64,000 bases of DNA from Eledone cirrhosa (taxonomy: Eukaryota), in assembly GCA_964016885.1 (NCBI GenBank), contig OZ024763.1:22940001-23004000 (forward strand), written 5' to 3'. The first letter of the stretch is position 1. The number at the start of each line of letters is the position of its first letter. Positions 3,401 to 55,980 of the stretch are shown here, piece by piece. Below the pieces are notes generated by a model. That model was given only the letters and a program-made list of their open reading frames with translations. It made no database searches and was not told the origin of the DNA. Made by a program: the position numbers and the translations under genes.

Positions 3401-6400
3401 GTGTACCTATTGTATACCAGATATACACAGGGATACAGTGTACCTATTGTATACCAGATATACACAGAGATACAGTGTACCTATTGTATACCAGATATAC
3501 ACAGTACCTATTGTATACCAGATATACACAGAGATACAGTGTACCTATTGTATACCAGATATACACAGAGATACAGTGTACCTATTGTATACCAGATATA
3601 CACAGGGAAACAGTGTACCTATTGTATACCAGATATACACAGGGAAACAGTGTACCTATTGTATACCAGATATACACAGGGATACAGTGTACCTATTGTA
3701 TACCAGATATACACAGAGATACAGTGTACCTATTGTATACCAGATATACACAGGGATACAGTGTGCCTATTGTAGACTTGATATACACAGAGATACAGTG
3801 TACCTATTGTATACCAGATATACACAGAGATACAGTGTGCCTATTGTAGACTTGATATACACAGGGATACAGTGTACCTATTGTAGACTTGATATACACA
3901 GGGATACAGTGTACCTATTGTAGACTTGATATACACAGGGATACAGTGTACCTATTGTAGATTTGATATACACAGGGATACAGTGTACCTATTGTAGACT
4001 TGATATACACAGGGATACAGTGTACCTATTGTAAACCAGATATACACAGGGAAACAGTGTACCTATTGTATACCAGGTACACACAGGGATACAGTGTACC
4101 TATTGTAGACTTGATATACACAGGGATACAGTGTACCTATTGTAAACCAGATATACACAGGGATACAGTGTACCTATTGTATACCAGGTACACACAGGGA
4201 TACAGTGTACCTATTGTATACCAGATATACACAGGGATACAGTGTACCTATTGTATACCATATATACACAGAGATACAGTGTACCTATTGTATACCAGAT
4301 ATACACAGAGATACAGTGTACCTATTGTATACCAGATATATACAGAGATACAGTGTACCTATTGTATACCAGATATACACAGAGATACAGTGTACCTATT
4401 GTATACCAGATATACACAGAGATAGTGTACCTATTGTATACCAGATATACACAGGGAAACAGTGTACCTATTGTATACCAGATATACACAGGGAAACAGT
4501 GTACCTATTGTATACCAGATATACACAGGGAAACAGTGTACCTATTGTATACCAGATATACACAGGGATACAGTGTACCTATTGTATACCAGATATACAC
4601 AGAGATACAGTGTACCTATTGTATACCAGATATACACAGAGATACAGTGTACCTATTGTATACCAGATATACACAGAGATAGTGTACCTATTGTATACCA
4701 GATATACACAGGGAAACAGTGTACCTATTGTATACCAGATATACACAGGGAAACAGTGTACCTATTGTATACCAGATATACACAGGGATACAGTGTACCT
4801 ATTGTATACCAGATATACACAGAGATACAGTGTACCTATTGTATACCAGATATACACAGGGATACAGTGTGCCTATTGTAGACTTGATATACACAGATAC
4901 AGTGTACCTATTGTATACCAGATATACACAGAGATACAGTGTGCCTATTGTAGACTTGATATACACAGGGATACAGTGTACCTATTGTAGACTTGATATA
5001 CACAGGGATACAGTGTACCTATTGTAGACTTGATATACACAGGGATACAGTGTACCTATTGTAAACCAGATATACACAGGGATACAGTGTACCTATTGTA
5101 AACCAGATATACACAGGGAAACAGTGTACCTATTGTATACCAGGTACACACAGGGATACAGTGTACCTATTGTAGACTTGATATACACAGTGATACAGTG
5201 TACCTATTGTAAACCAGATATACACAGGGATACAGTGTACCTATTGTAAACCAGATATACACAGGGAAACAGTGTACCTATTGTATACCAGGTACACACA
5301 GGGATACAGTGTACCTATTGTAGACTTGATATACACAGGGATACAGTGTACCTATTGTAAACCAGATATACACAGGGATACAGTGTACCTATTGTAAACC
5401 AGATATACACAGGGAAACAGTGTACCTATTGTATACCAGGTACACACAGGGATACAGTGTACCTATTGTAAACCAGATACACACAGGGATACAGTGTACC
5501 CATTGTATACCAGATATACAGTGTACCTATTGTAAACCAGGTACACACAGGGATACAGTCTACCTATTGTATACCAGATATACACATGGAAACAGTGTAC
5601 CCATTGTAAACAGTTCTTACGACATACAGGAATACAGTGTACTTACTCTAAACTGGATACACAAGAAAAGATTGTTAAAGATTGTACAAACCGAGTATGT
5701 AGGTAGGTGACTTTAATGACAGCAACCGCGATTCATATCTCAGAACATCTTTAATCTGAGAGCAAAGAATGAGCAAACACTTAGCGAAGGCATTGTAGTC
5801 GACAGCTCCCCATGAGAAGGCTTCCTGTAAGAGACAAAACTATGGACTAGAAAAAGGGTTGTGAGATTTGGCCCCCTAACTGACTATATTACATAACCTA
5901 TTGGACGAGACAGCTCCCTATGAAAAGGCTTCCTGTAAGAGAGAGACAAAACGCGCAGGGGAGATATTACTGGCCAGGGCTGGAGTGTCCCTGATGTTGG
6001 CAGGGGGGTCATGATGTTTGAGGTAAGGCGCTGACAAGACATCTGGTGTTGGTCAGAGCACAGCGTTGCTTGAGGCTAACATATGACAGGTCTGGGATTT
6101 ACAACAAAAAGCACCCAGTCCACACTGTAAAGTGGTAGTGTAGGTGTCACTACAAAGAGCGCCCAGTCCACACTGTAAAGTGGTAGTGTAGGTGTCACAA
6201 CAAAGAGCACCCAGTCCACACTGTAAAGTGGTAGTGTAGGTGTCACAACAAAGAGCACCCCGTTCACACTGTAAAGTGGTAGTGTAGGTGTCACAACAAA
6301 GAGCACCCAGTTCACACTGTAAAGTGGTAGTGTGGGTGTCACTACAAAGAGCGCCCAGTCCACACTGTAAAGTGGTAGTGTAGGTGTCACAACAAAGAGC

Positions 6401-15023: not shown

Positions 15024-18000
15024 GCCAGACAGTCCTATACGAGGAAGACAACCAATCTTGCCTCAAGTGGGAAATCTCCCGTCCAAACCCATGCAAGCGT
15101 GGAAGATGGACGTTAAACGATGATGATGATGATGGTGATGATGATGATGATGATGATATGTGTGTGTGTAACAATAAAAGCATGGGGGCTGGACTAGCTA
15201 TTACATGACAATGTAATCGGCTGCTCATCATCATCATCATCATCATCCTCGTTTAACGTCCACTTTCCACGCTAGTATGGGTTAGACGGGCTCATACTTA
15301 TGCTAAGGTATTGTTCTCAAAATAAATAATATCAAAATCTCATAGCTTTGATATTATGTGAGGTAAAGCCTTTACTGTGAAAATACAATAGTATATATAG
15401 AGTAATGTAAATGTTATGTGAGGTAAAGCCTTTACTGTGAAAATACAATAGTATATATAGAGTAATGTAAATGTTATGTGAGATATTATGTGAAGTAAAG
15501 CCTTTACTGTGAAAATACAATAGTATATATAGAGTAATGTAAATGTTATGTGAGATATTATGTGAGGTAAAGCCTTTACTGTGAAAATACAATAGTATAT
15601 ATAGAGTAATGTAAATGTTATGTGAGATATTATGTGAGGTAAAGTCTTTACTGTGAAAATACAATAGTATCATCATCATCATCATCATCAACGTTTAACG
15701 TCCGTGTTCCACGCTTGCATGGGTTTGGACGGGGGTAGTCCCACTTGAGGCAAGAGTGATTGTCTTGCTCGCATAGGACTGTCTGGCAGGTTTTCTACAG
15801 TTGGATGCCCTTCCTAACACCAACCACATTTACAGTGTGGGTCTGGGAGGTTTTTACCGTGTTGCCTACACGGCCACATTACAGCGTGGACTGTGTGTTT
15901 TTTTGTCGTGACACCTACACGATCTCATTTGTTTCGGCCTGGATGGCGCGGCACCAACATAACTTTACATAGAACGGGGTGGTGTGGATGGGGTGGGGGT
16001 GGCGGCGGGAGGGGTGTATTTTGTTAGAGATGCCTACTGGCAAGGCGGGTCTTCTCTGTTACTGAGTACCGCCAAAGGTCACGGTCCAGTGACATTGTCT
16101 TGGAGAGGTGTAAGTGTGTGAGGTCGGAGTTTATCAGCTCATCCCATGTTTTTCTAGGTCTGCCTATTCCGTGGCTACCGTCTATCTTTATTGCCCTGCA
16201 CTTTGTAATACAGCTATCGACTTTCATGCGCATCACGTGTCCATACCAACGCAGCCTTCTCTCGAGTAAACAACATCTGATCCCTCTTATCTCTAATTTT
16301 TTCCTTAGTTCGTTTATGCTTTGCCGTTCACGTATATTACTGTTACACATCCAGCGGAGCATGCAAGCTTCGTTCCTCTCTAGTCTGCGTATATCCTCTG
16401 CACACAATGCCCAGGTCTCACTACCATGCAACATTGCTGTTCGTATGCAGGCATCGTACAACCTGCCTTTCATTTTTAGGGAGAACCCTTTAGCAGCTAA
16501 TAGTGGTATAAGCTCTCTGAACTTTTTCCAACCAGTTCTGACTCTAGCTACAGTACTTTCAGAGCACCCTCCCCCACTGCTGATTTTATCGCCCAGGTAA
16601 CGGAAGCTGTCCACTATTTCTATAAAACCCTCTGCGCAATTGAAAGAGCTAGTATTTTGTGGGCACTTGCTGCTACTTATTGCACCAGAACACCGGCCAC
16701 ATGTAAAGTCTATGTTCTTAGTTAGCTTACCTGTGATCCCACTACATCTTTTATGCACCCATACTTTGCATTTAGGACATAAGATGGAGTTTCTACCTAC
16801 GCCTTTCCTACATACCGAGCACGACCATTTCCCAGAAGGGACCGCCGCCTTGTTTTCTTTCCTACAAACTAGAACTTTGGTCTTAGCCAGGTTAATTTTA
16901 AGTCCTTTTGACTCTAGGCCGTGCTTCCATGTTTGGAATTTCTTCTCTAGCTCGGCCATTGATTCCGCTATGAGTGTCAGGTCGTCTGCGTATAGGAGTT
17001 CCCATGGGCAGCCTGTCTTGAACTCCTCTGTTATAGCCTGAAGGGCAATAATAAATAGTAGGGGGCTGAGAACAGAGCCCTGATGGACGCCAACTTTTAC
17101 GCTAAACTCTTCACTATATTCGTTGTTAATTCTAACCTTGCTGACTGTTTCTTTATACATGGCTTGTATAGCCCTCACAAGCCATTCGTCAACGCCTAGT
17201 TTTCTAAGAGCCCACCAGATAATGGAGCGGGGGACTCTGTCGAAGGCTTTCTCCAGGTCGACAAAAGCTAAGTAGAGGGGTTTACCTTTAGCTAGGTACT
17301 TCTCCTGTAGTTGTCGTACTATGAAAAGAGCGTCTGTGGTGCTTTTGCCTGACACAAACCCGAACTGCATTTCATCTAGATCAATTCTCTCTCTGATTAG
17401 TTGCGCTATTACTTTTTCCGTGACCTTCATGACCTGGTCGATTAATTTAATGCCTCTATAGTTACTCCTATCTAGGGCGTCTCCTTTACCCTTATAACAG
17501 TTAACGATGATGCTGCTATGCCAGTCCTTCGGAACAACCCCATTCTGTACGACTTGGTTAACTATGCGGGTGACCATGGTGTGTCCCACCGTGCCAGATG
17601 CCTTCAGCATCTCAGCAACTATTTCCGAAGGCCCAGCCGCCTTACCAGTCTTCATATCCTTGATTGCCTTACTTATTATACTCCCCTCGACTAACACTGC
17701 TGGTCCCTCTATCGGGTCGATATGGGGGAGACTGTCTTTCTCCCATTTATTCTCCTCATTTAGTAGCCTTTCATAGTGACACTTCCAAGCTACCTTCTTA
17801 TCAGTGTCGGTGATGGCAAGTATGCCATCATCGTTAAGTACACACTTCTCCCCGACAATATCAGTATATATAGAGTAATGTAAATGTTATGTGAGATATT
17901 ATGTGAGGTAAAGCCTTTACTGTGAAAATACAATAGTATATATAGAGTAATGTAAATGTTATGTGAGATATTGTGAGGTAAAGTCTTTACTGTGAAAATA

Positions 18001-19927: not shown

Positions 19928-22900
19928 GCGGTTGAGAAAATAGTCGTAATAGCAGTAGAAGAAGAAGTAGGTGAAATAAAGATAAATACAAACCAATATT
20001 TTCAAACTTTGCAGCATTCAAGAGATGTTGTATGGCAACTTTATCAACATCCTGGCTTAGATTAATGGGTTCCGTTTCTGTTGTTTGACTAAATCTCATG
20101 GAACTATCATTCTCTGGAATAAATGGTAATACTACAGTCATTTCACACTGAATATATTATATTATATAATATATATATATTATATATATTATATTATATA
20201 ATGTATATGGATTGATAATATCGGTAGAGGGGTGGACGCCATGCTTTCCAGCATAGAGTTACGCCCCTTTATGGTATGAGTTAAATCCCACCGAGGTTAA
20301 CTTTGCCTTTCATCCTTACGAGGTTGATAAAATAAAGTACCAGTAATACACTGGGATAATTGCTGGTCTTGTGCCAAAAGTAGAAACAATTATATAATAT
20401 ATATATATTATATATATTATATTATATTATATATATATTATATAATATATATTATATAATATATATATATTATACAAACCAACAGTCAGTCGGCCTCTCT
20501 TAAACCAATATACACCCCACTGCACACACCCTACCCCATCCTCCCATTTCCGTCCACCGTGTTGGTGACACAAGAAAAAGCACTCAGTCCACACTGTAAA
20601 GTGGTCATGTAAGTAACACGGTAAAAAGGCTCCCAGTCTACACTGTAAATGTGGTTGGTGTTAGGTTGATGTTCCATACGAGCGAGACATGGTCTCCCGA
20701 CCATTCCTGCATCAAATGGAGCAAAACCGTCTAACCCATGCTAGCGTGGAAGATGAACGATGATGATACATATATATGCATGGAGATAGGGTGTACCCCT
20801 GGTATTCACGGAATTTTCCTCTTCCTGTTCAAACTGGCAGTAACTGGCTGCTCATACTTATGTTAAGGTATTGTTCTCAAAATAAATAATATCAAAATCT
20901 CATAGATTTGATATTATGTGCGATAATTATGTGAGATAAAGATTTTACTGTGAAAATACAACAGTACATATAGAGTAATGTAAAAGTTATGTGAGGTAAA
21001 GACTTTACTGTGAAAATATAATAGTATTTATAGAGTAATGTAAATGTTATGTGAGATATTATGTGAGGTAAAGACTTTACTGTGAAAATATAATAGTATT
21101 TATAGAGTAATGTAAATGTTATGTGAGATATTATGTGAGGTAAAGCCTTTACTGTGAAAATATAATAGTATATATAGAATAATGTGAATGTTATGTGAGA
21201 TATTATGTGAGGTAAAGACTTTACCGTGAAAATACAATAGTATATATAGAGTAATATAAATGTTATGTGAGATATTATGTGACGTAAAGCCTTTACTGTG
21301 AAAATACAATAGTATATATAGAGTAATGTAGATATTATGTGAGATATTATGTCAGGTAAAACCTTTACGGTGAAAATATAATAGTATATATACAGTAATG
21401 TAGATATTATGTGAGGTAAAACCTTTACTGTGAAAATACAATAGTATATATAGAGTAATGTAAATGTTTTTATTTTAATAAAAATGGACAGTACGATGAA
21501 TGACAATAGGTGATTTATGAATAGATTTGAGCAGAGTAGAGATCGAGGTGATGGCCAGGAGGCCACGAGTAGATAAATATTTTAAAGTTGAAAATACCTT
21601 TTAAGTGTTTAATCAAATATAAAGGCTCAGGTCCCAGTAGCTGAGGTTCATCTGAAGAAAGGTTATTTTGAATCTCTTCTAAGCTGAACCATTCGCAAAC
21701 TTTATTGGCAGACTGGTGGTGGATAGAGAAAACATACATATGAACACTCAACATTACTATATATCTATATATTACGGGGTCGATAAAATAAAGTACCAGT
21801 AATGCACTGGGTATTTGCTGGCCTTGTGCCTAAAGTAGAAACAATTACTATATCTATATATATACGCAGTATTACAGAAGATCTGCCTTGCCTATGTACA
21901 AAGCGAAACCTAGTCAGTAGGCCTCTCTTAACCAAACACACCCCAACCCACTACCCCTACTCCAACCTCCCACTCCCACCAACACCACCCTTTCTCTGTA
22001 AAGTTATGTTGGTACCACAACATCCAGTCCAAACTAATGAGGTCGTGTAGGTGTCACAACAAAAAAACACACAGTCCACGCTGTAATGTGGCCATGTAGG
22101 TAACACGGTAAAAAGCTTCCAGTCCACACTGTAAACGTGGTTGGTGTTAGGAAGGTCATCCAGCCGTAGAAACCCTGCCAGATAGTCCTATACTAGCGAG
22201 ACACGGTCACCCGACCAATCTTGCCTCAAGTGGGACAACTCCCGTCTAACTCATGCTAGCGTGGAAGATGGATGTTAAACGATGATGATGATATATAAAA
22301 AATTCAAAGTTTGAAAGCCACGGCATGCGGGTTTAGACGGAAAATAATAATATTGTAAGAAACAGGGGATGTTTTTTTTACCTTAATTTATTCAAATGTC
22401 CTGATATTTCAAGATTAATATCTCTTCTTCCAAGGAAAATAAAGGAACACAATATAATTATTCTCCGTCCAAACCCTGCATTGTCGTGGCTTTTAAACTT
22501 CGAATTCTTTATATATATATATATATATATCCCAGATTCAATTGGGGCTAACTACAGTAAAGTACTCTATATGATGATTTTCTTCAAATGAAACAGTTCC
22601 AGTCCTGTAGAAGCCATTTTTATATTAAATATATATATATATATATTTCACGTTGCTCCAGTATACACAGCTGAAAATGTGATGGACTGGTGTCCTGTCC
22701 AGGGGGAAGTCTTGTACTCTCAGTCACATCATGATATGAAACAAGGATAGGCACCGGTCTTACGAGTTTTTTGGCTTAAGACTTTTTTTAATTTTAAGAA
22801 AGGGGTCAGAATCAAAGAAAGAGATATAAAAAATGGTAGGGAAAGAGGTAAAGGTTTAGTCAGGGTGGGTAGGTTACTTACTGTTAATGTGGGAATGTCA

Positions 22901-28729: not shown

Positions 28730-28794
28730 TATTTTGTCTGATGAAAGCACACCATAATTTAACTTTGTGTCCTTGAAATATGTATAATAAAATA
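28730..28794 (+). ncRNA. Minimal type I hammerhead ribozyme motif
   Basis: Stem I tattttgt/ataaaata, CTGATGA, stem II aag..caca/tgtg..ctt, GAAA-tatgta-TA. Confidence 0.65.
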
Positions 28795-29156: not shown

Positions 29157-29598
29157 CGAAGTGTGTTTTATAAATTTTGAGGATAATATATCTTAACGGT
29201 TCAAGTTATCCCTGGATAGGGAAGAGAAGAAAAGTCATATATATATGTATGTATGTATGTATATATATATGGAAACACCACAACAAGTGAACAAGAATAA
29301 CAGATTCTACAACTCCCAACAAAATATTACAACATTATGACCCTCCCCAAGTATAATATATATGTATATGTTAGGTAATTCCGAAGAAAACGTAAAGGAA
29401 AGAGTGCTCTATGTATAAAACAGAGCTATTTAATTAGAAAGTGTTGTTTACTTTCTAATTAAATAAATATATATATGTATTTAATATAGAAAGGCTTCTA
29501 CAGGACTAGAACTGTTTCAGTCGGGAGAAATCATCATTTATACTCTGGTTTATATTGAATACCTTACTGTGGTTACCCCCGATTGAACCCGGGATAAA

Positions 29599-30463
<865 letters not shown>

Positions 30464-30635: not shown

Positions 30636-30680
30636 AGTCACTGATGAGGTCACAGAGTGTGTGACGAAAGGACTATGACT
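30636..30680 (+). ncRNA. Minimal type I hammerhead ribozyme motif
   Basis: agtca-CTGATGA-g-gtcaca-gagtg-tgtgac-GAAA-ggac-TA-tgact: perfect 5-bp stem I and 6-bp stem II. Confidence 0.78.
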
Positions 30681-33864: not shown

Positions 33865-33949
33865 TTATTTATTTATCCCAGGTTCAATCGGGGGTAACCA
33901 CAGTAAGGTACTCAATACATAGCAGAGTATAAATATTTAATATATAACT

Positions 33950-34044
33950 GGCTTCTACAGGACTAGAACTGTTTCATTCGGAGGAAATCATCAGGAAAGC
34001 TTTCCTGATGATTTCCTCTAAATGAAACAGTTCTAGTAGAAGCC
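33950..34044. ncRNA. Palindrome of two back-to-back hammerhead motifs (minus copy intact, plus copy with a stem III deletion)
   Basis: Centre aagctt at 33997-34002; minus strand reads CTGATGA-tttcctccgaat-GAAA-cag-ttctagtc-ctg-TA-gaagc. Confidence 0.7.
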
Positions 34045-34051
34045 ATTTCTA

Positions 34052-44122: not shown

Positions 44123-44460
44123 TTTAAATATTTTCTGTAACTTGGAATTTCCATTATGGTTGTACAAATTATAGTTTGTTAAAAAATGTGTTCTCTGTTC
44201 AGCCTTTATTGTTGTAACTATCAATTTTCTTTAACGTACTGGCTGCTCTACTGGGGAATCCTAAAAACTATTCAAACCCAACATCAGAGCACGTTAACCC
44301 CCCCCCCCCCCCCTCGCTGACTTGAGAGAGCGTGCGCTATCTTTGCACTGAAAAGATAAAAATGCTGGTATACCTAGCCAGACGGGCCATTTATATATAT
44401 ATATATTATAAAAAAAGTATATACACAACTATATATATATATATAAGTTTTAATATAGAT

Positions 44461-44513
44461 GAGATTCTACAGGACTAGAACTGTTTCATTCTTTAGAAAT
44501 CATCAGGAATCTC
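44461..44513 (-). ncRNA. Type I hammerhead ribozyme motif
   Basis: gagattc-CTGATGA-t-ttct-aa-agaa-t-GAAA-cag-ttctagtc-ctg-TA-gaatctc: 7-bp stem I extended by 11 bp (aagttttaata/tattaaaactt) past a bulge; GUA triplet. Confidence 0.85.
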
Positions 44514-44589
44514 TATTAAAACTTTTATACTCTGCAATGAATTGAGTACCTTACTTACTGTGGTTACCTCCGATTCAACCCGGAATAAC

Positions 44590-44637
<48 letters not shown>

Positions 44638-45549: not shown

Positions 45550-48500
45550 ATTCCCACCCCCTCTAAGAATACTTACGAAAAACTATTGATAGCTAGTGTT
45601 AACTCCTTTGTAAAAAGGATTAGATGGCGTGCTTTCCACTATGATAATAATAAGAATAGGAAGGACCCCAGGAATAGAACTAATTTTAATAACTACGGCT
45701 TCAAAACTTATAAGAGCCCACCACACAATATTTTGTTAGATAGTTTTGAAAGTGACTTACTCTCTCTTGTCAAAAATATTAGGTATAGGCCAAATAATAG
45801 ACATAGAAATTATAATAATTTTGATAAGTTCCAGTCTAGACTTAAAAATATTGTTAAGGGTTTCGGTGAGAATAAGTCCATTCTTGTCCCGGCAGATAAG
45901 ACTAAGAATCTATACTCCATGGATTATAGTGCTTACCGCGACTTTATTTATAAGGAGCTGCATAGAAACTATAAAAAAAACTACGCTTGAAAATTTGAAC
46001 CACATCAATAGTGAGGGCCTTAGAGTTGTCTCTGACCTCGGCCTCGATAAGTATACCCAGCCATATTACCCTCGAGAACCGAGATTCACTCTTAAGGATC
46101 ATAAGGTTGATTTTATTAGTAACCCCTCTGTTAGACTCATCTGTCCTTCTAAGTCTGATATAGCCATTATCAGTAAAAAAATCCTTGACCTTATTATACC
46201 AGATGTTAGGGATAAGGTTAATTTTAACCTATGGGGGAACACTAAGGAAGTTATAGATTGGTTCTCCGGGATTAATAGACTTGAATCTAATAAATTTATC
46301 CAATTCGATATTGATGCCTACTACACATCAATTTCACCCATCCTCCTCAATAAAGCTTTAATGTTGGCCATGAGAGTGTCCAGCCTTACACGATCACAGG
46401 TAGATATTATACTAGCAGCCCGTAAAACTATTATTAAATTTGAGGACACATTTTGGACCCGTAAAAACACGCCCAATAATTTTGACGTTACAATGGGTTC
46501 GAGTGATTCGGCCCAGGTTACTGATCTTGTTGGGTTGTTCCTCCTTAATTACCACCAGAACAGTCTTTATCTAATAGCAATCCTACGTGTAATGCATCAC
46601 TACTTGAGCCAACCAATAACACCCGGAAGTGCAATTGTAGAGTGAGTGCTAACTGCCCTTTAAACGGTAACTGCCTTTCTAAGAACATTGTCTATGCTTG
46701 CGTAGTTATAACTAATTCCTCTAATAGAACTTATATAGGCTCTACATCTAACACTTTTAAGACTAGGTTTAACTCTCATATCTCTAATTTCAAACATGTT
46801 AAGTTTAAGAATTCTACTTCTTTAGCACATTATATCTGGGATCTTAAGGGAGCTAATATACCATATAGCCTTAACTGGCGTTTAGTAGCACGCTCTAACC
46901 ACCTTTCTACACATACTAAGTTTTGTAATCTCTGTATCCTCGAGACACACTCTATAATTTTCTCTAGCGCATCCTTACTTAATAGAAAGTCTGAGATATT
47001 CTCTTCTTGCCCCCACGCTATTTCTAATTCATACTTTTATTATAAACCTAAACGTTCTAGTAGTACAAATTGTACCCATTAGCTGATATATTCCATTATT
47101 TATTTTTTAGTTTAGGTTCTTTTGTTTGCCAACATTATTATTATCATCATTATTATCATTGGTTTTTGATGACTCTTTATTCTAACTCTCATAATCTTTT
47201 GGCTACTGTACCATATCTATCTTCTTACGCATTAAATTTTCACTATTACACCTTATGAATGTATATAAGATTATATATTTTACGGTATTTATTTTATTTT
47301 ATTCTTATTTTTATTCGGATTCTTCTTTGGATACCCCCCCCCCCATGCGCACATAAACTTATTGTCAACCCCTCCAAATTGACTATGATTATAGTTAACC
47401 CCCCTCTTTTACGCTCCTTTCTATTATGTAATATAGTATATCGACTATATTTTATGCCTCTTTGCATCCTCCATATATTTCTCCATTTCTGTCCCTATTA
47501 GCCTACCTTAATTCTGCCTAAGTCAGTTCTTTAGATATCGTTATGTATATGATAGTAAAAAATTTTCATTCCTTTTTGTAAACATTTGTAACGAAATATT
47601 AACGTTTATAAACTTTAATTACTTAAACTATAGCTAATATTATACTGCCTTATTGGATAGTTTAGATATTTTTAATATTAATTTATCAAATAGGGTTTTC
47701 GAGTCATTTACAGGGGTTGTTTCCTTAGTTTTTACTTAACTACTTAACTGCATGTGAGACCTAAATGTATACGTTTGTTTTTGTTTTTTAATTTCCGGTT
47801 GATTCTATTTATTTATTTTATTCTATATTTTATATTTTATATTTTATTTGTAATACTACTGTGCATTATATTTACTGTCTGGCACTTACTCACTCATCCA
47901 TATACATGTCTGTCTACCAACCTTGTAATTATAAGTAATTATATATTATATTATGTTAATTTATTTTATATAATATATTATATTATATTGTATTTTTTAT
48001 TGTAATATTGATCCTTATTACTTACCGTTAATTATATGTAACATTATGATATGTTAAACTTTATATATCATGTAAGATGTTTGTATTTTTGTACCATCAA
48101 AATTTTTTTGGGGGTATTGTACAATTTATTTTTCCTCACCTACTCTGTAACCCAGTATGAATTGATTTGTTAACTTGAGTACCATTATATATTGTTTATT
48201 ATAAATGTTAGTATATTGTATATTATAAATGTTAGTATATTATTATTATATTATTATTGTGACATCTATATTGTTTGTGTAAATTAACCGGAGATTATCT
48301 ATTCTATTATATTGTATTATATAGTATATAATTGTATTGTTTATTATTTATTATATGTGCTACTTATAATTATATCATATTATTACCTCATGTATATTGG
48401 GTAGATGTATTAGTATTATTATTATTATTATTTTCATTCCTATCATGCTTATTTTTATATTCAAACTCTTAATAAGGTTTAATTTGTGCAGTGGAAGATG

Positions 48501-48945
48501 GATGTGCGTATTGTTGTATGTGTATGTGTGTGTACGTGTGCGCACATATATACATATGCATATTGTACCTTTTGATTTTTATTGTAATTTTAATGTTGGT
48601 AAAGGTATATTATAGTATATTATATTGTAATATATATAATTCCTGCTCTATATAACCACCTTTGTTTAGCTCTAGGTTTTTTTGCTTTGGACTATATTTG
48701 TAATATGGTTCTTAATGTTATATACATCCTTAGTAATTTTTATTATATATTTTTATTATATATTTTTGCAATACTTTAGTGTACGTACACTCCATATTCT
48801 TCGGAGCTTCCGGCTTGTATCTGCCGATATTACTTCTTGTTGTTTTAATTGCCCTGATGAGTCCTTAATAGGATGAAACATTGTCGGCTAATAAAGACTT
48901 TTGATGTATTGAAGGCTTCTTTGTTTTACTCTCTTAATATATTTA
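45550..48945 (+). mobile_element. Penelope-like retroelement (Naiad-like), frameshifted and internally deleted
   Basis: RT N-terminal half (KRIRWRA, ADKTKNLY, TLKDHK, FDIDAYY, TMGSSD). Deletion near 46550 removes the YRDD region. C-terminal CNC..CPLNGNCL zinc motif and GIY-YIG (IVY..YIG..FKTRFNSH). 3' hammerhead; (TA)n flanks. Confidence 0.88.
48851..48888 (+). ncRNA. Minimal hammerhead ribozyme in the 3' end (pseudo-LTR) of the Penelope-like element
   Basis: gcc-CTGATGA-gtcct-taat-aggat-GAAA-c-att-g-TC-ggc followed by AATAAA at 48890. Confidence 0.85.
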
Positions 48946-50590: not shown

Positions 50591-53500
50591 CTACAGGCTG
50601 ATATAGAGAGAAGACCCATTCACTCTGGCCATTCTCCCTACTTTCACCCACCTTTCGTAAAACTTGCTGGGGTAGAGCACCTCTCTCTCCATTCTGATCC
50701 TTCTTTTAAAATGGTATTTGAAAAAGGGGACCAGTTGTTGGCCGGAGAGAAAGGTGTCTGACCTCAGCCCTTTCAGCCTCGTCCACCATACAACTTCTTT
50801 AGCCATGGCTATCACACAGAGAAAAACCGCCTCTCCTTCGTTTTTGAAAGGGGGAGGCGGTTTGATCGTGACAATGGACTCGGTGGTCAACCGGATTGGT
50901 CCCACCCTCGACAGTAGTCGTTCCACATAGCCCCACAGGTCAGCAATGCCTGGGCAGTGTACGAATGCGTGCGCAACGGTTTCGTCATCATGCACGCATC
51001 TCGGACAGATCTTATTCAAAGGATCTCTACCCAGGCTCCCATGCCTGTGGAGCTTGTCTCGAACGGGTAGAGCCCCTCGGTAGCACTGCCAAGCCAGGGA
51101 CTTTTGGAAGTTGTCCATCGGTCCAGGGCCAAACGTCCTACCGAACAGACTGGCCAGTTCATCTTCCTCCATGCCTAGAGCTTCTCCGAGAGCATCGTCG
51201 CACTTGCTGCGTACCAACCCTCTATAGAATGTCGAGGTGGAGTCTCCACTGATTGCCGGGTCCGCTTTCTAGAGGGCCGTGAGCGCCTGGGCACATTCAA
51301 TGTGCCAGTCGCCCACTTTTCTCGGTCTTTGCTTGACCCAGGATTGCAGCTCGGTGAGCGAGACGAGTCTGGGAAAGGCTCGCCTCACAAACGGGGCCCA
51401 CACCAGTTGACCGGTGAGGAATACCTGGAGGTGCCGTAGCCTTAATGCGTGTTTACGCATCTGTAGCCACGGCATCCCCAGCCCTCCTTTCGAAGGGTGT
51501 TGACAGCAGATGGATCTCCTCACCAAAGGGGTCCGCTTGTTCCAAAGAAATTGGAACAGCGCGCACTCCATTTTGGCGAGTCTTTTCACTGGGCAAGGCA
51601 CGACGGTCAAGCGGTAGTAGATGACGGATGCTATATAAGTATTCGCCACTTCCGCTCGACCTTTCAGGGATAGTTTGCACTGGGCCCACTTCTGGGTGAG
51701 TGCAAACACCCTGGCCGTTACCTCGTTCCAGTTTTTCTCCACCTGGAGGTCTGGTCCGAACCAGACCCCAAGCAGCTTCACCGGGCCCTCCGTCCAGCGT
51801 CCGACGACGTCGTTGGAGGGCATCGGTTTGCCTCTCCATGCTCCGAGTTGCAAACCGACGGACTTGTCCCGATTCAGCTTGGCTCCTGTAAACCTTTCAT
51901 ATTCCTCCAGTAAGGTGCCGATCTCACCGATTTGCGAGGTTTTCGACACCATTACTGTCACGTCATCGGCGTAGGCCGACGCCGCTTTCTGCAATCCCGG
52001 TTCCAAAGGGATGCCCTGCAACCGCTCCAACTTCCGCAGTAGTGGGTCAAGAGCCAGCACATACAGTAGGGAGGAGAGAGGGCATCCCTGTCGGATGGAT
52101 CGCATGATTTGGAACGGCTCCGAGAGGTGGCCGTTCACCTTGACCCTTGAGCAGACGTTGCTGCTGTGCATCGCAGCAATCCAACCCCTGAAAACGGGTC
52201 TGAAGCCTGCCGCCGCGAGCACCGCATCCAGGTAACGATGGTCAACCCTATCGAAAGCTTTAGATTGATCCAAGTTGATCAGGGCCCCACCAAAGCCGGG
52301 TTCATTCCCTACCCTCTCTATGATGTATCGCATAAGGTGGAGATTGTCGTGAATGGACCTGGACGGGATTGCGCATGTCTGCGCTTCTCCCACCAGGTTT
52401 CCAACGACAAGCGCCAACCTCTTCGCTAACACCTTGGCCAAAATCTTTAACTCTGTATTTAGCAGAGTTATGGGCCTGAAGTTACTTATGTCATCCCCCT
52501 TGTTCTCATCCTTCCTCACCAGCGTAACTACGCCCTTGGTCACAGAACTGGGAATTCTCCCGTTCTGCTGCCAGTTGCAGTAGACCGCTTCGAGGATATC
52601 GGAGAACAAGTCCGGCATCGCTACATATAGCTCGTATGGTAGACCATCGAGACCCGGGGATTTGCGTTTGCCGCATTGGCTCAGCGCCGCCCCTATCTCA
52701 GCAGCTGAAATCGTCCTTTCGCAGGACTTCGCCTCCGCGTCCGAGAGGCGCGGCAGACCGTCGAGGTATGGATTGAAATCCATAGTCTCACCCGGCGCGC
52801 CGCCCCTCTCGAACAGTCGTGCAAAGTGCCGCTGAAAGGCCGCACACATCTGCCCAGGTTCAAGGATCACACGCCCATCCTGGTCCTTCAAAGACCGAAT
52901 CGTGGACTTGTTCCCACTTTTTGCCTCTGTCACTCGGGCCCAGCTCACAGCTTTGGCTCCCTCATTACCCAGAGCACGTATTTTACTCCTGACAACGCAG
53001 CCTTCATGCTTCACCTCAAAGAACTGGTCTAAGGCCATTCTTGATGCCAGCACGCCGGCTACATTGCCACTCCTAATCGCCTCTTCTACTCTATCTACTA
53101 ATTCCCTTTCCGTCTTGTTCCTATCCCTTGCTAATTCCTGACTAAAACCTATCGATTCTATTCTAATTGCTCTCTTAAGAGAGCTCCACCACCTGTTGTT
53201 GACAATTGCCCCTGTCAAACTCTGCTTAACTAACGTGCTAATCCGTTTACTGTAAGCTTTGCTTCTCGGTAAGGACAAGTTCAGCTTCCAGTAACCGGGT
53301 CCCTGTCTATGGGTTCTATCAAGGTTGGCTATGCAGGTCACTAACTTGTGATCCGAATAGTCAACCATGAACATTTTTGGACAGCTAAATGTGTCCCTAT
53401 CGTTCTCTCTAACTAGGACCCTATCTAGGTACGACCTAGATGTTCCACTGCGATTGGTCCACGTCCATAGTGGTACAGTCGGAAAATCTAGTCGATATCT

Positions 53501-54004
53501 ATCGGCCAGGTCAAATCGGCCGATTAACCTTTTGAGGCTTTTACACCCCCCTCTATTGGCACATGCCCCTACATAGTCCCAACGTGCATCCAGGATACCA
53601 TTCCAGTCCCCCACTAAAAGCAAGGAGCGGGACGTTCCCAGAAAAGTTTCCAGACGTTGGAAGTATTCCGGCCGCGCTGCCCAAAAAGGGGCGTACACAG
53701 CAATTAGTCTAAGGGCTCCACTTTCACTACTGCCGACGTCTAAAACCACCAGTCGACCCTCCGGGTCCAGGTGCACCTTCTGTATGGCGAGGCCCAGGTG
53801 TTTTCGCAGCAGAACGACAACTCCACCCCCACCCCCCGGTTGACAGAGAGATGCGAAGATCTCAAAGTCGTCGAAGAGGGGCGCCAGTTGGTGCTCGCTG
53901 CTGATCCTGGACTCGCAAGATCTGAGATCGTTTAAAAGTTTGCCTTGTTTCCAAGACAGTCCCAGGCCACGTACATTCAGACACCCAACTCTTATATCAG
54001 CCAT
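50591..54004 (-). pseudogene. LINE ORF2p (APE endonuclease, RT, C-terminal Cys/His finger) with one in-frame TAG at 51269-51271
   Basis: LNVRG, GDWN, YLDR, SDH; FRPITLLN, QGCPLS, YADD; CPRC..H...C. The same frame continues after the TAG, where the paralog near 32025 has TGG. Confidence 0.9.
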
Positions 54005-54025
54005 GTTGGTTAAAAGAGGAAGGAC

Positions 54026-55768
54026 CTACCTGTTCGGCTCCTGAGGAGCAGGTTGCACAATATCCATGGGCGTATTGGAGGGGTTGTTTGGTGGGGTGTT
54101 GTTCTGTGGTGGAGTGGGGGTGTTTGGTGAGGTGTGGGTGGGGAAACGTTTCAAGAGGACGCGGTTATAGGGTCGAGTACATGTTTTCCCCACGTCCTCA
54201 GGAAAGTTCTCTCTTAGTTTTGCATAGGTGTCCATTGGGAGTCTTATCATTTTTAAATGCGGTTTGTTGGCCGCGCTTGCAAAGAATTGCCCTTCAGTTT
54301 CCACCAAAGGGTCTTTGTGTATTGTTTTTACTAGTTCTTTGTTATTTGTGTTAATGTATGTATACTGTTTTATTTGTGTTGTGTTTGTTTGTTGTTCTTG
54401 TGTGTGCTTACGTTTTGTTGTATGTGTTATGTTTTGGGGTGGGGCGGATTTTGTTTGTTCTGTTTGTTTTGTTTTTGTTGGTGGTTGTGTGTTTGTTTCG
54501 TTTATGTTCGAGTGGTGCTTTCTTTTTTTCCTTTTTACAGGTTGGAAGGGTTCCCCCTCTTCGTCACTAGGTGCCGTTTCCGCTGGGTCCTCGTCCGTGC
54601 TGTCGGGTAGTGGTGTATTTTGGGGTTTTGTTGTATTTGTGTGTGTTTTGGGAGTTGTTTTGGGTGGGGCCGTGTCTTGTGTTATTTTTCCCTGTTGTTT
54701 TTGTTGTTGTTGTGGTGGTGGTGGTGGAGGTGGTGGTGGTGGTGGTGGTGGCGGTGGTGGTGTGTGGGGTGTAGGCAAAAGAGCCTTTTTTTTTGTCAAT
54801 TGAGGACAAGCAGCCCTTAGATGACCCCTGCTTGAACAGTAGTAACATATGGGCCTCCTACCCTCGGCTGAAATATATATAAATGTTTCTCCATCGAGGG
54901 ACACCCTCTGTGGTATTCTAGCTATTCGTTCTGGTCTCATTTGGACCAGAACCTCCACGCTCAAACCGCCGAAAACGTCTGTGGTGACTTCTCCTACTGA
55001 GAGGATTCCGTCCTCGTCTTCTAAAAATCCTGTTAGTACCCAGGAAATGCATGCATTTGGCCGGATTCCGGAGACCCTTATCTTCTGCGTTCTTTTCCCT
55101 AAATATGTGGGGAAAAATGTATGTAGCTTGGAAACAATTGGTGCCACAGAGTATTTCCTGGCCGTCAATTGATCCTTCATTAGGACCGTTATATTCCCAT
55201 AGAGTGGCCCTTTTTGTACGAACGATATATCACTCCACACATTTTTTAGGACCAGCTCAATCTCTTTTTGGGATAATTGAGTTGGTTTCCTTGTTATGTT
55301 GGAAATTGTTCTGAAAGATATCGTTCTTAGCGTCGTGTCTCTTTTGATTTCTTGTGGGGAGGTGATTGTGAAGTCTCCTCCTTCTTTGAAAGTTACATAC
55401 TGTTTCGCTTCCTTCATCTTTTCTCTCAGAGTTGTAATGTCCAGTTGCTTGCAGGTTTGTGTTTTCCGGACCGCCTGTGCAAAGGAGGCACCAGTAGTGG
55501 GTTCGCTTTGTTTGGTGTTATCGTTATTTTTTCCTTGGTTGGTGTTGTGACTATTGCTGTTATTGTCGTTGTTGTTTTTGTCTGCGTTTATGTGACTTTC
55601 TGGGTTTTCACCCATTTTTACAAATTTTTCTTTTAATTCCGTGTTCCATGTTTCTTTTGCAGAAGTCAGGAGGGAAGACTTAGAGCCTTGTGCTTCTAGC
55701 TTCTCTGTATCACCTTTCTTAGGGGGCGTGGCTTTCACGTTAGGATGAGATGTGAAAATTCCGTCCAT
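54026..55768 (-). CDS. LINE ORF1p (zinc knuckle CYYCSSRGHLRAAC, Pro/Gln/Thr-rich tail)
   Basis: Open frame 54026-55861; first ATG at 55768; CX2CX4HX4C motif. Confidence 0.88.
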   Translation of the reverse strand: MDGIFTSHPNVKATPPKKGDTEKLEAQGSKSSLLTSAKETWNTELKEKFVKMGENPESHINADKNNNDNNSNSHNTNQGKNNDNTKQSEPTTGASFAQAVRKTQTCKQLDITTLREKMKEAKQYVTFKEGGDFTITSPQEIKRDTTLRTISFRTISNITRKPTQLSQKEIELVLKNVWSDISFVQKGPLYGNITVLMKDQLTARKYSVAPIVSKLHTFFPTYLGKRTQKIRVSGIRPNACISWVLTGFLEDEDGILSVGEVTTDVFGGLSVEVLVQMRPERIARIPQRVSLDGETFIYISAEGRRPICYYCSSRGHLRAACPQLTKKKALLPTPHTPPPPPPPPPPPPPPPPQQQQKQQGKITQDTAPPKTTPKTHTNTTKPQNTPLPDSTDEDPAETAPSDEEGEPFQPVKRKKRKHHSNINETNTQPPTKTKQTEQTKSAPPQNITHTTKRKHTQEQQTNTTQIKQYTYINTNNKELVKTIHKDPLVETEGQFFASAANKPHLKMIRLPMDTYAKLRENFPEDVGKTCTRPYNRVLLKRFPTHTSPNTPTPPQNNTPPNNPSNTPMDIVQPAPQEPNR

Positions 55769-55980
55769 TTCTATTAGTTTGCCGTAATAAATTTTTAACT
55801 GGAAAATTCGCCCCAAAAAGGGGCGAAAATAAATAAACTCAAAGTTTGACGACCAAGGCAAGGGGTTAACGTATATTACAGTATAAAAAAATTAATCAAA
55901 ACTCACTTTTTGAGTAAGTAAATCCGACTCGGTAGCCGAGCTTGTTCACACACGTCAACACACGTCTCTCGTATACGAGA

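Follow-up and report, generated by a model that had tools for sequence, protein, structure and literature searches.

Two-armed hammerhead repeats in Eledone cirrhosa, traced by sequence to the terminal repeat of a Hydra-clade Penelope-like element

What are the short hammerhead-bearing repeats that lie beside (TA)n tracts in Eledone cirrhosa, and how could they have been made? In the 64-kb window, by which we mean the whole stretch of DNA analysed, taken from a 3.0-Gb genome rich in (TA)n, a preliminary description had recognized four copies of a presumed element of ~150 nt, consisting of a hairpin and a hammerhead. Four related copies do lie at about the places it gave (E 1e-8 to 1e-25 between copies), all four adjoin (TA)n, and the GAAA-CAG-ttctagtc-CTG-TA sequence, part of a type I hammerhead motif, is found; a search of the window for a fifth copy found none. 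The 44-mer proposed as common to all copies is no more than ~75-92% alike between them. What does not hold is the unit itself, as its hairpin half is the inverted tail of a retrotransposon, that is, the reverse complement of a 67-nt tail that lies after the hammerhead in the parent element; in copy 4 it is the minus strand of the tail arm (Table 1).

The window copies and their parent element

Judged by sequence, each of the four copies is a pair of opposed arms that come from a Penelope-like retrotransposon (PLE) of the Hydra clade, namely from its terminal repeat (pLTR), and each aligns to the parent in two opposed pieces at 82-96% identity. The hammerhead arms of copies 1 and 2 lack C3 and the 5' strand of stem I, and that of copy 1 terminates at the tail-less end, followed by (TA)n. 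The long arm of copy 3 runs from parent +2 through the full hammerhead core and the whole tail in native order, with C3 at 33994 and a predicted cut between 33956 and 33955, while its short arm has C3 at 34005 and a 5-nt deletion in stem III. The core of copy 4 is intact and the predicted cut falls between 44468 and 44467, so that the earlier placement of the cut after the GUA at 44468 on the minus strand was right. In all, two of the five window hammerhead arms retain a full type I core (44506 minus, 33994 minus) and the other three are broken. The window copies are probably inert; copy 4 would be the only one whose core might still cut, provided that transcription reaches it from outside.

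Table 1. Arms of the four window copies, aligned to the parent element
Arm	Position in window	Strand	Relation to parent
Copy 1 tail arm (subfamily B), diverged	22528..22571	-	82% to parent tail, strand opposite to hammerhead arm
Copy 1 hammerhead arm, begins at U4	22572..22637	+	92% to parent B; no full core
Copy 2 hammerhead arm, begins at U4	29472..29536	-	86-91% to parent B; no full core
Copy 2 tail arm, terminates at (TA)n	29536..29599	+	91% to parent B tail
Copy 3 long arm	33872..34000	-	94% identical to parent B across 127 nt
Copy 3 short arm, parent +2 onward	33999..34051	+	head-to-head with long arm; from sequence and parent alignment
Copy 4 hammerhead arm (subfamily A), parent +1 to +67	44446..44512	-	96% to L129
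Copy 4 tail arm, parent about +58 to +134, terminates at (TA)n	44514..44590	+	95% to L129

Longer copies elsewhere (L031-L050) show the native order, in which the reverse complement of the 'hairpin' comes after the hammerhead, both being on one strand, and widely spaced pairs of cores led to an ORF starting just past the tail. Locus L129 holds a whole insertion, running from (TA)n through an inverted tail and pLTR, a direct pLTR with hammerhead, the tail, the ORF, the 3' UTR and a tail-less pLTR into (TA)n. Its outer ends are identical in place to those of the 44445 copy (copy 4), and mini- and full-length insertions have two outer ends in common. Counted from the first base of stem I as +1, the upstream part of the parent comprises a TATA box, 30 nt, the hammerhead (+1 to +51) and a first end site (about +67), the downstream part the tail, a second end site (about +134), the AUG (+182), the ORF, the 3' UTR and the pLTR. 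Three contig runs of unrecorded kind, aligned to L129, contain all parts, with junctions like those in the assembly; being uninformative on start sites and copy number, they do not enter into the evidence.

The parent ORF is intact, with 713 aa comprising a telomerase-like RT and, at the C terminus, a GIY-YIG; an uninterrupted frame of 758 codons occurs in 4 of the 13 regions fetched and one of 811 codons in a fifth. A search at E<=0.001 returned 1,196 relatives of the protein; the 120 highest-ranking are mostly ~40% identical to it and nearly all unnamed. Its structure model (pLDDT 93) finds the best fold match in the telomerase TERT 3du5 (E 1.5e-8); a Pfam search of the ORF did not find any RT family, and a profile search of PDB sequences gave no match, so that it was the fold match that settled the assignment. 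In Pfam, the GIY-YIG of L129 falls below the cut-off (E 0.13) and that of the homolog P0076 above it. The protein carries RWR, SDKT, YRDD, CNCLNKEAC (CxCX5C), CDLC (CxxC) and CMH (CxH), and these blocks agree, in a comparison by eye, with published Hydra proteins. The motif set of the clade includes DKT, a CxCX5C linker, CxxC and CxH around conserved E and N, and RWK (PMC8557442, cited here and below, like the other papers, from its accessible parts), whose place RWR occupies here. By these motifs, the pLTR hammerhead, the tail, the inverted 5' copy and the (TA)n target, we assign the parent on sequence grounds to the Hydra-clade PLEs. At about 4.8 kb from +1 to the 3' end, L129 is longer than Hydra elements, which are generally <3 kb (PMC8557442), owing to a 3' UTR filled with microsatellite. 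Positions 4600-6400 of the locus contain this UTR, with about 2 kb of TA/TG microsatellite of the element's own target type, which may favour tandem self-insertion of the element.

Several neighbouring features of the window may be recorded in their own right. A second Hydra-like PLE has left an ORF relic at 45553-47079 (+), 36-42% identical to P0003 and with an internal gap, together with a 1.8-kb AT-rich 3' UTR and a hammerhead at 48854-48930 (+) that ends at (TA)n and has a G.U at 10.1/11.1, a palindromic stem III and a GUC cut. Two copies of another hammerhead-like motif, at 27 (+) and 57591 (+), have CUGAAGA, a U.U closing a 3-bp stem II with GAAA loop, a palindromic stem III and a CUU cut. 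Hammerhead-like motifs with a long stem II face each other across (TA)n at 28738 (+) and 29148 (-), as do similar pairs at L049 and L041, and CUGAUGA...GAAA motifs at 30641 (+), 39257 (-) and 2565 (+), which have no ordinary stem I/III layout, are possibly of a permuted type. The long open frames at 50594-55891 (-), of 621, 918 and 225 aa, and at 16027-17886 (-), of 620 aa, are candidates for LINE ORF1/ORF2 and an RT.

Structure and abundance of the ribozyme

An Rfam search of 44430-44600 returned no hammerhead at E<=10, and one of the whole window at E<=1 gave, among 150 of 230 rows, just TA/TG-repeat miRNA noise. Among 189 distinct arms, the core and stems II and III are nearly invariant, with 23 variants of loop II. 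Position 10.1/11.1 is U.U in 184 of the 189, the usual, if not universal, G10.1-C11.1 pair being missing; the pattern recurs in several published Hydra hammerheads, which likewise read ctgatgat/ctgaagat...tgaa, with a U before and after stem II (PMC8557442). Stem I varies from AGAUUC/GAAUCU to AGCUUC or GGCUUC/GAAGCU and to GGCUUUC/GAAGCC. Only copies that retain their native upstream sequence were scored for this, since complementarity is built into any inverted arm. The covariation between subfamilies that had been anticipated is real and amounts to about two evolutionary events. The copy at 44461 had been credited with a stem I of its own, gagattc/gaatctc; its native stem is the 6-bp AGAUUC/GAAUCU, whereas the seventh pair, like the outer 10-11 bp, derives from the junction with the inverted arm. 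The counterpart gcttc, put forward as a 5' strand, occurs in none of the window copies (33950 has gctttc, with one bulge).

An inverted pair of cores does exist at 33950-34046, as described, but it is not the ribozyme dimer it was called, because a hammerhead dimer needs two same-sense copies, while a sense and an antisense copy pair together. Folding turns an RNA across both arms into one long hairpin (-66 kcal/mol) with a hammerhead-compatible fraction of 2e-41, and such a fold-back would block cleavage. The monomer hammerhead fold makes up ~1e-3 of the ensemble, tertiary contacts excluded, both in the 44445 copy and in the native motif, and the stem III region gives -12.8 kcal/mol as a dimer vs -1.4. 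These figures fit the weak, dimer-type ribozymes described for PLEs (PMC4209133; also the review PMC6765202). Most likely the ribozyme cuts the parent RNA weakly, with help from dimerization or from protein.

As to copy number, which the preliminary description had raised, exact core matches in the genome run to thousands. Exact matches to a 40-mer taken from the 44445 core (subfamily A, GUA then GAAUCU) number 7,956, far more than chance would give (reversed control, 0), and a 26-mer of the other three copies (subfamily B, GUA then GAAGCC) has 7,605, with 8 of the first 30 loci inside one duplicated unit. This unit, seen at L130-L134, L138, L143 and L144, is larger than the single truncated B-type copy within it and is duplicated at least 8 times in the first 7 Mb of contig C1. 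Subfamily B is linked to an ORF 70-80% identical solely via adjacent fragments (L146, L255, L247), and no full-length B element came to light in which pLTR, tail and ORF form a continuous stretch. Exact tail-to-ORF junctions number 101 genome-wide, whereas the 20-mer that follows the cut is matched exactly 14,498 times and one subfamily alone has ~8,000 exact hammerhead cores. Among the genomic matches to the 44445 copy, the 30 best have fixed outer ends and a variable inner junction. A master element with one junction common to the mini-copies was sought and none was found, internal junctions varying from copy to copy, and a MITE origin was ruled out, as the arms are unequal and follow an RT-encoding parent; target-site duplications are not readable in (TA)n.

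Arm ends and the probable start of the RNA

Where the arms end was read in two samples. The first sample was drawn with the 20-mer that immediately follows the cut and comprises its first 30 matches, which all lie on C1 and include some twin arms of one insertion. By eye, their 3' ends fall at about +67 in 10 cases, at the tail end (about +134) in 17, into the ORF in 2 and elsewhere in 1; the two main sites correspond to the pair of internal RT start sites that flank the tail of the Poseidon element PAc (PMC11167929). On the 5' side, 15 arms reach at least 133 nt above the cut and none ends between there and the start of stem I; 9 end at +1/+2 or -1, i.e., within one base of that start, and 6 stop inside the ribozyme, 2 of these within 4 nt of the cut. 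The cut site itself is the start of 0 of the 30. The second sample, 90 of 1,406 matches to subfamily B with three pairs of duplicates or twin arms, was sorted by script into 71 arms without native sequence above +1, 2 of which look native by eye, and 19 with it. Of 17 long B arms, 16 have a TATA box, TATAAATA, that begins 30 nt above +1, and in three A-type references it lies 30-32 nt above it. We take both this spacing and the initiator-like CCAGATT to conform to consensus. Because the short arms stop at the start of stem I, 30-32 nt below the TATA box, and none of the 30 begins at the cut, the RNA would appear to start at the ribozyme; the same stops suggest that an uncut template was reverse-transcribed, with priming at both ends of a broken (TA)n tract. 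Speaking against this reading are the 2 arms that begin within 4 nt of the cut, the other Hydra-like family of the window, in which the 60 nt above the hammerhead at 48854 contain no TATA, and Penelope of D. virilis, which has a TATA-less internal promoter (PMC2377424). TATA and initiator have been noted in the pLTR of a rotifer element (PMC3846280). A literature search, which covered papers outside subscription, did not find a start-site wall at a PLE hammerhead, and the accessible part of an octopus repeat annotation (PMC13282606) does not contain the word hammerhead.

The wall at stem I has another conceivable source. With the same PLE origin, it could arise by fold-back or template switching of the cDNA instead of a transcription start, given that stem I is a 6-bp inverted repeat, that the fold-back letters CAT or CATC follow the arm end in L301, L071 and L073, and that L161 has a junction with full stem I microhomology. 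However, fold-back predicts a T before +1 in subfamily B, where 7 of the 71 short arms have T and 43 have G; half of the A arms run past stem I, and subfamilies with different spacers retain the same distance to the TATA box. We regard this explanation of the wall as unlikely, though worth keeping in mind.

Does the base before +1 also record a cap? In five A insertions and one B insertion, selected for close spacing of the arms, an extra G precedes +1 on both arms, with 1-4 letters between them. This is suggestive of a cap trace, a reading of the sequence that is confounded by fold-back and microhomology: in A by the stem I fold-back, whose letters are seen in L301 and L070-L074, and in B by microhomology with the other arm. 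An initial count in B gave G before +1 in 17 of 25 short vs 2 of 19 long copies; once junctions templatable by the other arm were dropped, 11 of 27 remained (p 4e-4 against local background, 0.05 against 25%). For A, a hand count in the first 100 of 2,453 matches gave 76 G, 12 A and 12 T, which was set aside as proof of a cap, since fold-back and microhomology also yield G. The control one base further up in A, with 1,325 matches, is uninformative, 9 of the 10 loci viewed being short copies with a junction-derived TC.

Could the short copies instead be an independent, non-autonomous ribozyme element of ~150 nt, SINE-like or a non-LTR retrozyme, that spreads via a self-cleaved monomer or circle? 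Short copies with conserved core in their thousands, the three small tandem arrays of 191-221-bp units found elsewhere (L290-L292) and a 2,745-copy forward-strand excess hinting at an array would suit such an origin. It is contradicted by internal junctions that vary from copy to copy, by two halves that sit on opposite parent strands, by same-strand pairs at just 1 of the 90 sampled loci, by the start of 0 of the 30 arms at the cut, by array junctions in L290-L292 that do not fall there either, and by the three broken hammerhead arms among the five of the window. Metazoan non-LTR retrozymes (PMC7229834; 10.64898/2026.07.22.740005) resemble the family in that they are short, do not code for protein, carry type I hammerheads and are related to PLE pLTRs, but they are defined by head-to-tail tandem units and circular RNA, while the window copies are single, head-to-head and not cut-to-cut units. 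Nothing found points to monomeric or circular RNA from the window copies, which are non-tandem, the sampled arms not starting at the cut. For these copies the retrozyme origin is largely refuted, and we rate it as highly improbable.

The arrays deserve mention as such. Their tandem units (221, 191 and 211 bp in L290, L291 and L292) span ribozyme, tail and ORF start, each with its own junction, L291 being two-armed, and they look as if a small circle had been copied over and over or the template had been jumped. The 7,063 family A motifs whose upstream bases are native divide into 4,904 forward and 2,159 reverse, the excess of 2,745 suggesting a large same-strand array somewhere in the genome.

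A third route to palindromes, self-priming on an antisense template made from a bidirectional pLTR promoter, has been proposed for rotifer Penelope elements (PMC3846280), and the tail hairpin indeed folds better as antisense than as sense RNA (-13.8 vs -10.5 kcal/mol). Yet the arms are usually unequal and end at two sense-defined sites, and both can end at +1 with 1-4 unrelated letters between, unlike in a fold-back; moreover, PAc, the Poseidon element of Anolis, can use sense RNA in vitro to extend either strand of its target (Frangieh et al. 2024, PMC11167929). We consider self-priming very unlikely here.

A possible mechanism and its known counterparts

The window copies are thus best read, with reasonable though not high confidence, as two-armed pLTR fragments beside (TA)n, made by a reverse transcriptase that copied the front of an uncut RNA from both sides of a break. 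Transcription would start at +1, the first base of stem I, and the GIY-YIG endonuclease would cut both strands of (TA)n. Each 3' end at the break would then prime at one or the other internal start site; if the mRNA starts at +1, both cDNAs would run off the 5' end after 67 or 134 nt, to be joined head-to-head by end joining with some trimming. Full-length copies would need read-through tandem RNA and would hence be rarer. The ribozyme would act on the parent RNA, removing a 45-nt leader or trimming read-through RNA, and would not be required to make the template; this role is the weakest step of the mechanism. Two-ended priming of this kind resembles L1 twin priming, and a literature search linking Penelope with twin priming found nothing related. 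A more far-reaching proposal, to which we give somewhat less than an even chance, is that the hammerhead forms the very 5' end of a capped mRNA, which is mostly copied into two-armed palindromes, and that the ribozyme may be a dimer-dependent, leader-removing brake.

Much of this scheme has counterparts in PAc (PMC11167929), which cuts an AT-rich target on both strands, uses uncut RNA as main template, has two internal RT start sites bounding the tail and carries a hammerhead near the ORF start. It belongs to another clade, however, its ORF starts inside the ribozyme rather than 136 nt past the cut, and a 5' wall at the ribozyme and mass mini-copies are not reported in the accessible parts of that study. 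With the Hydra-clade PLEs, the family shares a single ORF, C-terminal GIY-YIG, DKT, CxCX5C, (TA)n targets, a pLTR hammerhead and, according to a figure legend, an inverted 5'-truncated copy and tail at one end (PMC8557442). It differs from them in its tail, about 67 nt here and 30-40 nt there, and in its 4-bp stem III with an 8-nt, CUAG-centred loop; Hydra-1_Obim, the Octopus family in the supplement of the same paper, has another hammerhead sequence and is hence another family. The minimal metazoan PLE hammerheads (Cervera and de la Pena 2014, PMC4209133) likewise have a type I core in pLTRs and a palindromic stem III region and are mostly dispersed, single truncated copies, and in Schistosoma pairs on opposite strands were found 100-700 bp apart; in contrast to these, the family here lacks G10.1-C11.1, has a stem II of just 3 bp and possesses a stem III. 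What would be new, as far as the sequence goes, is the family, since both its clade and its type of ribozyme are known. Publications already cover PLE hammerheads, inverted pairs, tails and the Hydra clade itself, and as a repeat the element is ordinary; its interest lies in the mechanism.

What would the more far-reaching proposal imply, if true? Palindromes would mostly form because reverse transcription starts merely 67 and 134 nt below the cap, and the thousands of inserts would amount to a fossil primer extension that maps the start site to the base. They would also record a cap-derived G, two-ended priming in vivo and an uncut template, and the hammerhead would serve as a brake on the element mRNA, not as a tool for making the template. 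Both the role of the PLE hammerhead and the origin of the inverted ends are stated as open in PMC8557442 and PMC11167929. As the family has intact ORFs that are young, predicts the RNA start to the base and has left dated insertion products in their thousands, the two questions become testable with one element. The family is also a warning that, in genomes of this kind, hammerheads and short palindromes by the thousand are by-products and should not be taken for ribozyme genes or DNA transposons.
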